Shown one piece after another: positions 23,503-26,305 of a DNA stretch of 64,000 bases; the stretch's first letter is position 1; the number at the start of each line of letters is the position of its first letter. The notes under the pieces were generated by a model. It was not told the origin of the DNA. It made no database searches and was given only the letters and a program-made list of their open reading frames with translations. The stretch lies in sequence record SRR20825006_505; one strand, written 5' to 3'. The translations under genes and the position numbers were made by a program.

Positions 23503-24945
23503 TTATGCGACCTCCCAATTGGTGATGCGGTTGCCCGCTTCGTCTTTACCGTCTTTCAGCTTGATGCCCATGGCGGTAAGCTCATCGCGGATCGCGTCTG
23601 CCTCGCCCCATTCTTTGGCGTTTAAATGATCCAAACGCGCTTGAATTTTGGCTTCAATTTCGTCTGCCTGTTCATGCTCTGGCCCTGCATTTTGCGCGGC
23701 TTGATAGGCTTTCATGTCATCAAAGCTGACCAGCCCCAAAAGCTGCATCGAGCCGAAGAGGCGCCGCGCATTGTGCTCACGATCACCACCTGCATGGCGG
23801 TGCAATTCAGCCAGCACGCCTGACATGTTCATATCGTTCGCCAAATGGGCCAACAGCTTTGAACATGGGCCTAAAGCTTCATATTCGGCGCGGTTTTCCT
23901 CCACAAAATCCAACCCCAGCTTCAACATTGTCGCCTTCCAGCGATTAAGGTTTTTCTCAGCTTCTTCAAGCCGTTTCAGGGTGAAATCGATCGGCTCGCG
24001 GTAATTTGTCATGATCAAACCAAGGCGCAACACATCGCCCGGCCATTTGCGGTTACCAAAGCTTTCGGTCTCCAGCAGGTCAGCAATAGTGTAAAAATTG
24101 CCCAAGCTCTTGGACATTTTTTCACCTTCGATCTGCAAAAAGCCATTGTGCAGCCAATAGTTGGCCATGCGATCTGTGCCGTGTGAGCAACGCGATTGGG
24201 CGATTTCATTTTCATGGTGCGGGAATACCAAATCGATGCCGCCAGCATGAATGTCAAACACTTTGCCCAAATAACGCTCGGTCATGGCAGAACATTCGAG
24301 GTGCCAGCCCGGACGACCCTTGCCCCATGGGCTATCCCAACCGGGCAGATTTTCATCGGACAGCTTCCACAACACGAAATCGCCGGGATTTTTCTTGTGT
24401 TCCTCCACTTCGACGCGGGCACCAGCTTGCTGCTCGTCGAGATTGCGGTTGGAGAATTTGCCATAGTCTGCCATGGAAGTGACATCAAACAACACTTCCC
24501 CACCCGCTTCATAGGCATGGCCTTTTTCGATTAGCGTTTCGATCATGGTGATCATTTGCGCAATATTGTCTGTGGCGCGGGGCTGCAAGTCTGGATCGAG
24601 ATTGCCGAGTGCGTGCATATCGGATTGATATTGCGCGGCGGTGCGCTCGGTGACTTCGCGAATGGCTTGGTTCAGCTCCATGCCCGGATGTTCTTTTGCC
24701 GCGCGGGCGTTGATCTTGTCGTCCACGTCCGTAATGTTGCGGGCATAGGTGACATGTTCAGCGCCGTAAACATGGCGCAACAGACGATACAGCAAGTCAA
24801 ATGCCACGGCAGAACGGCCATTACCAATATGGGCATAATCATAAACGGTGGGGCCACACACATACATGCGCACATTGTTTGGATCGATTGGATCGAAGCG
24901 TTCTTTTTGGCGTGTCAGTGTGTTGTAAAGTTGAATTTCAGTCAT
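23503..24945 (-). CDS. cysS: Cysteine--tRNA ligase
   Basis: [43 protein letters not shown]. Start set at ATG 24945 (MTEIQLY). Confidence 0.96.
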
Positions 24946-25052
24946 TTCCCTCAGCCCAAAATTGGTTTTGCGACCGGCCATGGTTGGCCGTCAGCGGCGA
25001 GGATTTTGCAATTTAAATGACAGAAGACAATACAAAACCGCGCCGCTAAAAT

Positions 25053-25106
25053 TTAGCGGATAATAATGCAGCCAATAATACAGATTTGGTTACGGTTTTG
25101 CTTCAT
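25053..25106 (-). CDS. Putative Ile/Cys-rich leader peptide MKQNRNQICIIGCIIIR of the cysS-cimA operon
   Basis: Minus strand reads ATG AAG CAA AAC CGT AAC CAA ATC TGT ATT ATT GGC TGC ATT ATT ATC CGC TAA (6 Ile, 2 Cys). Hairpin 25043-25059 overlaps the stop; a promoter-like TTGATT-N18-CAAAGT ends 6 nt before the ATG. Confidence 0.7.
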   Translation of the reverse strand: MKQNRNQICIIGCIIIR

Positions 25107-25170
25107 GAGCGCACTTTGAGCGAAAAGCGCTAAGAAAATCAAGCCAAAATGAAAAAATTCAGTCCACAAA

Positions 25171-25197
25171 TAAAAAGGGAGCCTTTCGGCCCCCTCA
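25171..25197 (-). terminator. Rho-independent terminator of the cytochrome c gene
   Basis: Minus strand GAGGGGCC-GAAA-GGCTCCC-TTTTTA. Confidence 0.7.
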
Positions 25198-25223
25198 AAT
25201 CTAAGCAACGAAATGGCTAAAAC

Positions 25224-25589
25224 TTAGCCTTTTTGCTCGCGATATTTGTCGTGACATTCTTTGCAAGAGCCACCCAATGTGCGGGCATCTGCGCCTGCCA
25301 TTGAATCTGCTTCGAGCTTGTCAAAAATGGCAACGAACTCATCCCATTCCTGCCAGATCAAATCTGTTGCTTCAGAATCGGCGCTTGTTGAGCCTTCTGG
25401 GAACAACATTTTGAGCTTTGCAGCCAATGGCGCAACATCACCCGGCTTGCCTGCTTTAAGCGCAGCACCCATATCTTTCATGGCTTGCTGACGCTCAGCG
25501 ATCACATCGCCCTGTGCGCTTACGCTGGAAACGGCACCCATGGCCAAAGCAACTGATGTTGCGGCGGCCAAAAACAACTTAAACTTCAT
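25224..25589 (-). CDS. Class II cytochrome c (c'/c556-like), short
   Basis: Signal peptide, ERQQAMK, LFPEGS, IWQEWDEF, C-terminal CKECH heme motif; SD GGGAG before ATG 25589. Confidence 0.9.
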   Translation of the reverse strand: MKFKLFLAAATSVALAMGAVSSVSAQGDVIAERQQAMKDMGAALKAGKPGDVAPLAAKLKMLFPEGSTSADSEATDLIWQEWDEFVAIFDKLEADSMAGADARTLGGSCKECHDKYREQKG

Positions 25590-25759
25590 TTTAATCTCCC
25601 TATCACATGCATGGTTCATGCTATGCCCGATCAAAGCAATTATGCCATTGAAAGATGACAATTGCATCGGTGAATGCGCGCAAATTAGCTGCGACGCACT
25701 CACAATTGCGTGATAGATGAGTTTAAAAATACGGCCTTTCTTAGGCCTAGGCGCTTTGT

Positions 25760-26305
25760 TTAAGAAACGTCAGCCAGTTCTTTTTGGTGCAGCCAGTCAG
25801 CGTGTTTCGGCGCTTTTTTGGTGCTGGACCATTCTTCCAGCATATCCCATTTCACTGAATCCAAGCGCTTGAGCAGCTCTTCTTCTTTGGGGTCAGGACA
25901 CGCCAATTCAACGCGATGGCCATTTGGATCGAAGAAATAGATCGAGTGGAATATTGAATGGTCGGTAACGCCCAAAACCTCAACGCCGTTCTTTTCAAGA
26001 TGCTCTTTATATTCGAGCAACTCATCGCGATCTTTCACTTTAAACGCAATATGTTGCACCCAAATCGGCGTATTCTCATCACGGCCCATTTCAGGCTTTG
26101 TTGGCAATTCAAAGAAGGCCAGCACATTGCCGTTACCTGCGTCTAGGAACAGGTGCATATAAGGATCTGGCTCATGGGTGGATGGCACGTGATCTTCAGC
26201 GATGGCGAGCACAAAGTCCATATTGAGCATCTTTGTGTACCATTCAACGGTCTCTTTTGCGTCCTTACAACGATAGGCCACATGGTGAATTTGTTCGATT
26301 TTCAT
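25760..26305 (-). CDS. VOC / glyoxalase-fold metalloprotein
   Basis: IHHVAYRC, YMHLFLDAG, QHIAF, SIYFFDPNGHRVELA; SD GGAGG before ATG 26305. Confidence 0.9.
   Translation of the reverse strand: MKIEQIHHVAYRCKDAKETVEWYTKMLNMDFVLAIAEDHVPSTHEPDPYMHLFLDAGNGNVLAFFELPTKPEMGRDENTPIWVQHIAFKVKDRDELLEYKEHLEKNGVEVLGVTDHSIFHSIYFFDPNGHRVELACPDPKEEELLKRLDSVKWDMLEEWSSTKKAPKHADWLHQKELADVS

Follow-up and report, generated by a model that had tools for sequence, protein, structure and literature searches.

The window analysed here, a 64,000-nucleotide stretch of sequence record SRR20825006_505 (all coordinates below are positions of this 64-kb stretch), carries a short upstream open reading frame (uORF) rich in Ile and Cys codons ahead of a compact cysS-GFA-cimA operon. 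We propose, with moderate confidence, that this uORF and its surrounding RNA form a ribosome-stalling leader-peptide attenuator of the operon that senses both Cys and Ile. Leader-peptide attenuators are textbook devices. The kind of leader found here, and probably its family, is known already as a Cys attenuator of cysS: the sequence-only reading of this DNA had thought the leader undescribed, but the related cysS motif uORFC-8-2 is in print in that role (PMC8632094). What is added here is the occurrence of such a leader in Devosiaceae, its apparently leaderless translation, two covarying folds without a canonical terminator, a richness in Ile that matches that in Cys, and an operon ending in cimA, a pattern that tracks the Ile content of leaders across families.

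The leader, cysS, the GFA-family gene and cimA all lie on the minus strand. The uORF (25106-25053) has 17 codons (MKQNRNQICIIGCIIIR), an ATG at 25106 followed by 16 sense codons, and ends with a TAA (25055-25053) located 107 nt from the cysS start at 24945. Two Cys and six Ile codons are found among the 17, and Ile or Cys occupy eight of the ten final residues. The candidate control codons are Ile8, Cys9, Ile10, Ile11, Cys13 and Ile14-16; the two Cys codons, at positions 9 and 13, are separated by Ile-Ile-Gly and are not in tandem. Among the open reading frames (ORFs) of at least 12 amino acids in the six frames of the window, this uORF is the only one with at least seven Ile or Cys in its last ten residues, and 20 shuffles of the window yielded no ORF with a comparable Ile/Cys-rich end. 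The uORF, a hairpin over its stop codon, a second pairing followed by a pyrimidine-rich tract, and a promoter-like element lacking a Shine-Dalgarno (SD) sequence were all described in the sequence-only reading, and each was confirmed on the minus strand.

Profile matches agreed with the gene names first given to the operon. cysS (24945-23503) matched the cysteine--tRNA ligase model TIGR00435 with 458.2 bits (cut-off 340), the GFA-family gene (23502-23026) matched PF04828 with 87.6 bits, and cimA (23023-21434), with HMGL-like and LeuA_dimer domains, matched the citramalate synthase model TIGR00977 with 606.4 bits (cut-off 450). The packing is as tight as had been claimed, with 0 nt between the cysS TAA and the GFA ATG and 2 nt between the GFA TGA and the cimA ATG. 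Twenty Devosiaceae loci were fetched, two of them too short to judge; all 18 of the others have the order cysS-(GFA)-cimA, with zero to four GFA genes in between.

An Ile/Cys-rich uORF had been expected to recur before cysS in relatives, and it does so throughout the family. In a DNA search of 41 related genomes the region was found in 18; in other genera the match was limited to the promoter, the uORF and the hairpin and did not cover the cysS start. A uORF ending in ICIxGCIIIR (pattern MKT-x-ICIxGCIIIR) lies 140-165 nt before cysS in the 18/18 relatives' loci, among which CysS identity falls to 54%. A strict DNA pattern drawn across the stop hairpin matched once each in 83 Devosiaceae genomes out of 243, representing 17 of the 24 genera; the reversed pattern gave two matches. 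All five of the examined Devosiaceae genomes without the strict pattern carried a diverged Ile/Cys uORF. The scan of 185,579 species genomes with the pattern produced 85 stretches, and among the 80 listed loci that were judged, cysS lay just downstream in 68 and three more were incomplete; the other nine were discarded as chance matches, being from unrelated phyla with no cysS nearby. The hosts were Devosia, Maritalea, Pelagibacterium, Cucumibacter, Devosiaceae metagenome-assembled genomes (MAGs) and two Paracoccaceae MAGs; these names identify the family as Devosiaceae and put the window in or near the genus Maritalea. A permissive Rfam 15 scan of positions 24000-26000 returned six matches, all far under their gathering scores and none of them relevant.

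The 59 distinct family sequences encode uORFs of 14-18 codons, each with three to six Ile and one to four Cys, and some of the Devosiaceae leaders contain tandem CC. All three stop codons are used (TAA 40, TGA 10, TAG 9), and both the Ile and the Cys codons vary synonymously (for Ile, ATT 191 and ATC 116). Because size and composition are kept while stop codons and synonymous codons change, and because the stop hairpin covaries, we take this to be a translated, cis-acting leader. Its Ile codons are as conserved as its Cys codons in Devosiaceae. ATT accounts for 62% of the uORF Ile codons (191/308) versus 24% (203/831) in 39 adjacent cysS genes; this excess fits selection for slowly read control codons, and nucleotide constraints could also explain it.

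The promoter-like element (25142-25113, minus) consists of TTGATT (25142-25137), an 18-nt spacer and CAAAGT (25118-25113), and ends 6 nt before the uORF ATG. A generic sigma-70 scan did not call it. Its CTTGATTT is kept across the Devosiaceae leaders: TTGNNN begins at position -36 or -37 relative to the ATG in the majority of the 59 family sequences, and 6-7 nt separate the -10-like hexamer from the ATG. None of GGAG, GAGG and AGGA precedes the ATG of the uORF, either in the window or in the 59 sequences. Since an SD is seen in 0/59 and the -35 position is fixed, an SD-less promoter next to the ATG would imply a leaderless or nearly leaderless uORF mRNA, which is also how the leader had first been read.

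The alignment of the 59 leaders revealed five conserved segments, A to E. Segment A is the 5' end AUGAAAACCG, B comprises the last sense codon and the stop, C is the nearly invariant GGCGGCGCGGUUUUCUUC, D is GAAGAGCCCGCUGCC, about 40 nt downstream, and E is the cysS ribosome-binding region, which in the window (24952-24943, minus) contains GAGGGA at 24952-24947 and the start codon at 24945-24943. Two alternative arrangements share segment C. In the first, segment A (AUG...CAAAACCG, 25106-25093, minus) pairs with C2 (25042-25026, minus; CGCGGUUUUG plus the first part of the pyrimidine-rich linker) to form helix P1, which sequesters the 5'-terminal AUG; here CAAAACCG (25100-25093) is complementary to CGGTTTTG (25040-25033) on the minus strand. 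Helix P2 (25059-25043, minus; CCGCTAA-ATT-TTAGCGG in DNA letters) joins B, CCGCUAA (25059-25053), through the loop AUU to C1, UUAGCGG (25049-25043), and covers the stop codon. In the second arrangement C2, the 3' strand of P1, becomes the 5' half of a C:D duplex, since segment D (UUGCAAAAUCCUCGCCGCUGA, 25011-24991, minus) is complementary to C1 and C2 together; the CCUC of D also faces the cysS SD.

Both pairings noted from the window alone are conserved in the family and show some covariation. Over the 59 sequences P1 and P2 together are 88.6% paired versus 40-58% in slid controls, with 86-88% for the two helices of P1 and 90.6% for P2. P1 has compensatory variants (AAAACC/GGUUUU, GAACCA/UGGUUC, GAAGAC/GUCUUC and AAAACCC/GGGUUUU). 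In P2 two pairs are changed on both sides, and the last base of the stop codon changes together with the base opposite it (AU 26, GC 9). The C:D pairing reaches 82.0% in the same sequences versus 37-54% in slid controls, and its covariation score of 0.221, versus 0.173, was attained by none of 500 shuffles, nor did any of these show as many double changes; GGUGGC occurs with GCCACC and GGCGCGG with CCGCGCC. The duplex is predicted at -25.5 kcal/mol in the window and at a mean of -26.4 over the 59 sequences, versus -22.2 with swapped partners. Because both conserved pairings use segment C, it appears to toggle between the uORF (A and B) and D. Masking of the 5' 36 nt, as by a ribosome stalled at Ile8-Ile11, raised the number of sequences with at least eight predicted C:D pairs from 10/59 to 33/59. 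Apart from these pairings, the window linker CUUCUGUCAU (25026-25016, minus) is the complement of AUGAAG at the start of the uORF and also, allowing one mismatch, of AUGACUGAA at the start of cysS (24945-24937, minus), and the linker and the cysS start are paired with each other in the unconstrained minimum free energy (MFE) fold.

The association with cimA extends far beyond the family of the window. We sampled one genome per alphaproteobacterial family (151 genomes, 150 with cysS, one unpublished genome excluded) and examined 109 loci (L067-L175); in 49 of these families the gene directly after cysS is a cimA homologue. A uORF with at least three Ile and at least one Cys within ten residues was found in 11/49 linked loci versus 2/60 unlinked loci (Fisher p = 0.0027, without phylogenetic correction), and the same criterion on the reverse complement gave 2/49 and 1/60. 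Both of the unlinked matches lie in AT-rich DNA and look random. The 11/49 is a conservative count, because the cimA-linked locus L078 has a short uORF (2309-2396, minus) with tandem Cys followed by Leu-Ile-Ile that escapes the threshold of three Ile. The clear leaders of unlinked loci are Cys-only, of either a tandem CC or a CxCxC class; the families of two such leaders were sampled with four genomes each, and in one of the unlinked families (f151) a CxCxC uORF was present in 3/3 loci with enough upstream sequence. The association of Ile/Cys leaders with cysS-cimA linkage stood in the count just given and in a family of Rhodobacterales described below, where 32/32 loci carry them; it did not stand on a second measure, the presence of Ile within five residues of a CC or CxC cluster in linked versus unlinked loci (p = 0.18, not significant). 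Since 38 of the 49 linked families lack such a uORF by the criterion and the second measure is not significant, we grade the support that this comparison of sequences gives to a putative sensing of Ile as real but moderate.

Several observations concern the other leaders in this survey. The CxCxC class has a longer uORF with basic residues before the cluster and no Ile (L072, L097, L099, L111, L112, and further L120, L138 and L291-L293); we found no description of this class of cysS leader, with no search aimed at it. Some apparent Cys-containing uORFs (e.g. L105, L117, L157) were discounted, several of them lying inside the 3' end of the upstream gene. A conserved peptide of the form LLPLIG-R-RA..RL encoded just upstream of cysS in several families (L067, L105, L117, L142, L152, L157, L169) is likewise the 3' end of the upstream gene and gave rise to false uORF calls; it may represent the C-terminus of glutamyl-tRNA synthetase, which it resembles (gltX-cysS adjacency).

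The published motif uORFC-8-2 (Brewer et al. 2021, RNA Biol, PMC8632094) is reported with 145 examples, exclusively upstream of cysS in Rhodobacterales. It is described as an AUG-started uORF with conserved tandem Cys codons (positions 14-15), two stems and a U-run, and is interpreted as a Cys-tRNA-sensing attenuator in which ribosomes stall on the Cys codons; the published description of the motif itself names neither Ile codons nor cimA (PMC8632094). A Rhodobacterales family was sampled after the two Paracoccaceae MAGs had matched the pattern, giving 30 loci plus the two MAG loci. cimA follows cysS in 29 of the 30 and in both MAG loci, the remaining locus being incomplete. An SD-less uORF of 11-15 codons rich in Ile and Cys (e.g. 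...IICCIT...) is present in 32/32, with tandem CC in most. The layout recurs as well: the stop codon lies within a hairpin, the 5' end pairs just after it, and a GC-rich complement lies downstream. A covariance model built on Devosiaceae only (R1) recognised 19 of the 32 at the position of the leader, with E < 0.01 (rough E-values) in 13 cases. The same model matched none of 14 other loci, and gave only two weak matches in 100 loci of other alphaproteobacterial families (L078, 27.1 bits; L104, 22.5 bits). Because the layout recurs and R1 matches 19/32, the window leader probably belongs to the uORFC-8-2 family as its Devosiaceae member or variant, as judged on the sampled Rhodobacterales loci rather than on the published alignment. 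Most of the Ile/Cys leaders elsewhere are too diverged to demonstrate homology. Our literature searches found no paper joining cysS, cimA or citramalate synthase, and a leader peptide.

We suggest the following mechanism. Transcription would start at or beside the uORF AUG, and the uORF would be translated from a leaderless mRNA. With ample charged tRNA-Cys and tRNA-Ile, the ribosome would complete the 15-17 codons and depart, and A and B would clamp C in P1 and P2. Segment D, then unengaged, could fold onto the ribosome-binding region of cysS and keep expression low. A shortage of either Cys-tRNA or Ile-tRNA would stall the ribosome on the ICII or CIII codons, where it would cover A or B. C could then pair with D, the cysS start region would be freed and cysS translated, and the tightly packed GFA and cimA genes would follow by coupling or polarity. 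Such a leader would be an OR gate, raising CysS for Cys charging and CimA for threonine-independent Ile synthesis. The sequences themselves show the conservation, the alternative pairings and the gene order; codon content and gene order are what suggest the sensing of Ile and the co-regulation of cimA.

Some results weigh against this mechanism; those from the folding models are given here, and the others beside the rival explanations that they favour. With the mask placed on the late CIII codons or on the stop, no shift to C:D was predicted (10/59 and 11/59), and these late codons, the best conserved of all, are not explained by the equilibrium model. Because equilibrium masking fails there, a late stall would have to act kinetically, with C1 caught by D, or through queued ribosomes. 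The covariation is limited, the core being nearly invariant, and RNAalifold applied to the 5' domain called P2 alone, P1 having been specified by hand. The fold of the window leader by itself (z = -1.53, 15 of 200 shuffles as stable) is no more stable than shuffles, and thus its stability is uninformative.

Concerning the output, sequestration of the cysS SD by D can be drawn in the window: in the unconstrained MFE fold the CCUCGCC of D pairs with GGGCUGAGGG, and in many genera the CUGCC of D pairs with GGCAGGA. In the window the SD is unpaired with a probability of 0.16 when the 3' domain is folded by itself, and masking of D raises this to 0.35. The family-wide effect is small, with values of 0.38 for the isolated 3' domain, 0.51 once D is masked and 0.43 for shuffles, a slight difference in full-length folds (SD core unpaired 0.26 vs 0.32), and a D:E energy of -14.4 with the own partner versus -13.1 with swapped partners and -12.9 with D reversed. 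This leaves room for the first rival, in which the same sensing would lead to premature termination of transcription, either with P2, P1 and the U-rich tract serving as an unusual intrinsic terminator, as has been proposed for uORFC-8-2, or with Rho acting on the C-rich linker, and with C:D as an anti-terminator-like or stabilising alternative. We regard it as a possible, if doubtful, explanation. Besides the weak case for SD sequestration, it can draw on the GGUUUUCUUCAU that follows the GC-rich segment C in most sequences, on a U-run consistent with the terminator stem described for uORFC-8-2 in the account of that motif (PMC8632094), and on the pyrimidine-rich, G-poor linker. However, a terminator scan of 25106-24945 found no canonical intrinsic terminator in the leader, in line with the claim that a clean one is missing, yet it did detect the terminator of the neighbouring upstream gene. 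The P2 stem and the U's are 5 nt apart; the U's, being the 3' strand of P1, change along with the 5' end, so that where A is GAAGAC, C2 is GUCUUC and there is no U-run. Segment D, placed beyond the U tract, could not prevent termination there and is still conserved and covarying with C. Because the scan is empty, the U's belong to P1 and D lies beyond them, a canonical terminator does not appear to be a conserved feature of these leaders. The models weakly support translational output as somewhat more likely than termination.

A second explanation, which we consider rather unlikely, is that the leader senses Cys alone, as published for uORFC-8-2. Its Ile codons would be kept for other reasons, such as an A/U-rich unstructured tract for leaderless loading, nucleotide constraints or a hydrophobic nascent chain, and the cimA linkage would be inherited gene order. 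The published reading of the Rhodobacterales motif, as described, does name Cys alone (PMC8632094). In the final Ile codons of the Devosiaceae leaders the ATTAT pentamer is invariant at the nucleotide level, and these Ile codons might persist for such a reason. Some cimA-linked families have CxCxC-type Cys-only leaders or none, with 38/49 lacking an Ile+Cys uORF by the criterion; the families sampled are not independent of each other, and Ile near Cys clusters did not differ significantly with linkage. Yet Ile is kept at the amino-acid level in spite of synonymous change between ATT and ATC, its richness persists across families in leaders that are unalignable at the nucleotide level, and in 59/59 family sequences its three to six residues per 14-18 codons are steadier than the one to four Cys. 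Ile-rich Cys leaders occur nearly only with cimA, whereas the clear Cys leaders of unlinked loci are without Ile. If Cys alone were sensed, the window leader would be an ordinary new member of the described motif.

A broader version of the dual-sensing proposal would make the leader an ancient alphaproteobacterial OR gate, leaderless, terminator-free and with translational output, that ties tRNA-Cys charging to the citramalate route to Ile because one stress bears on the other in the cell. The suggested link is that a surplus of cysteine inhibits threonine deaminase, as it does in E. coli, and brings on Ile starvation. A shortage of charged tRNA-Cys, or Ile starvation induced by Cys, would then raise CysS, thiol-related GFA proteins and the CimA bypass. 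We find it distinctly unlikely that the proposal holds in this extended form.

It is highly improbable that the uORF works like TnaC or SpeFL as a nascent-peptide arrest sensor, in which ICIxGCIIIR and the stop would stall on a small molecule instead of responding to tRNA charging. For a starvation leader the C-terminus, with its Gly and last Arg, is unusually conserved, but P2 accounts for the Arg codon CGC and for the stop, and CGC becomes UGC with a G-U pair in one genus; the peptides of Rhodobacterales and other families are free apart from their richness in Ile and Cys, and the operon points to no ligand beyond the two amino acids. Equally slight is the chance that the product is a functional hydrophobic micro-peptide acting in trans like peTrpL of Sinorhizobium, its place before cysS being incidental or secondary: the peptide is conserved within Devosiaceae and a trans-acting leader peptide has been described in Alphaproteobacteria (PMC7298713), but composition and not sequence is kept across families, the uORF is a single copy per genome and always at cysS, the conserved RNA pairings overlap it, and such a function would in any case be compatible with a role in cis.

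The surroundings of the leader can be described briefly. Upstream lies a cytochrome c' gene (25703-25224, minus; Pfam Cytochrom_C_2, PF01322, 42.6 bits) with a CKECH haem motif near the C-terminus, which often adjoins the leader in other Devosiaceae. It ends with a terminator-like hairpin and T-run (25196-25175, minus; 9-bp stem with 6 GC pairs, tail TTTATTTGTG), and because this gene has its own terminator-like hairpin the uORF appears to head a separate transcription unit. Four public RNA runs were examined, all of them assembled contigs; in two metatranscriptome contigs, from a relative about 97% identical, the upstream gene, the leader and cysS are all covered, and these contigs may contain DNA. 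Downstream, the number of tandem GFA paralogues between cysS and cimA differs among Devosiaceae, and GFA matches in that position were absent from the 109 loci of other alphaproteobacterial families. In each of five Devosiaceae genomes exactly one protein, the cysS-linked one, passes the citramalate synthase cut-off, and a separate LeuA-like gene is also present. Because threonine dehydratase homologues were likewise found in Devosiaceae genomes, beside cimA, both routes to 2-oxobutyrate may exist. In the alphaproteobacterium Roseobacter denitrificans labelling is reported to place about 80% of Ile synthesis on the citramalate route (PMC2749216). After cimA, a 732-amino-acid protein with a C-terminal LysM/peptidoglycan-binding domain is encoded at 21347-19149 (minus), as it is at several Devosiaceae loci.

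The proposal, if true, would have consequences at several levels. One leader would read two unrelated amino acids and drive a synthetase together with an enzyme of the other amino acid's pathway. uORFC-8-2 would be re-interpreted, since the conserved Ile codons and the cimA cargo of this motif seem not to have been noted so far, and it would be extended from Rhodobacterales to Devosiaceae and other families. The adjacency of cysS and cimA in nearly half of the alphaproteobacterial families sampled would be explained, and there would be a regulatory handle on the citramalate route to Ile in marine and soil Alphaproteobacteria. The leader would also be a compact natural two-input sensor, seemingly without an intrinsic terminator.

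Several known systems can be compared with the window leader. In E. coli the thr leader contains codons for Thr and Ile, that of ilvGMEDA contains codons for Ile, Leu and Val, and the pheST leader controls a synthetase. These classical leaders share with the window the control codons of several amino acids in one peptide and, in pheST, a synthetase operon under leader control. To our knowledge, the leader-peptide attenuators described so far read the amino acids of a single pathway. The classical ones do so with a canonical intrinsic terminator and SD-bearing leader ORFs, whereas the window leader has two metabolically unrelated amino acids, no canonical terminator in the scan and an apparently leaderless uORF. 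Translational attenuation of ermC rests on a ground state of 1:2 and 3:4 pairings and on a stall on segment 1 that allows 2:3 to form and frees the ribosome-binding site in 4. The proposed switch of the window has the same four-segment logic. The ermC-type stall is drug-induced and depends on the nascent peptide, whereas that in the window is presumed to be induced by starvation; helix P1, which closes the 5'-terminal AUG, is an extra element of the window leader.

Leaderless Cys leaders are known from two other phyla. In mycobacteria, leaderless poly-Cys short ORFs are reported to relieve sequestration of the ribosome-binding site when ribosomes stall (Canestrari et al., 10.1101/834739). As in our proposal, a leaderless short ORF with Cys codons heads the operon and control is translational; the mycobacterial sequences are unrelated, are described as reading Cys only and control Cys metabolic genes. 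According to that report their mechanism was established by mutagenesis, and ours would be its counterpart on comparative grounds. The cysS leader of Deinococcus deserti, a 10-codon peptide with two Cys whose transcription start site is at the AUG, is a proposed attenuation leader (PMC4007540). It is encoded at the extreme 5' end of the cysS mRNA, as suggested for the window, and belongs to an unrelated phylum; the account of this leader mentions no Ile codons, cimA or structure model (PMC4007540). The nearest system remains uORFC-8-2, which, like the window leader, stands directly upstream of an alphaproteobacterial cysS. Both start their uORF with AUG, conserve Cys codons in it and have two stems and a 3' part rich in U; the sampled Rhodobacterales-family loci also have an SD-less promoter adjoining the ATG. 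As published, uORFC-8-2 is reported from Rhodobacterales only and carries tandem Cys, whereas the window leader comes from Devosiaceae (Hyphomicrobiales) and has split Cys (positions 9 and 13 of 17), with Ile outnumbering Cys.

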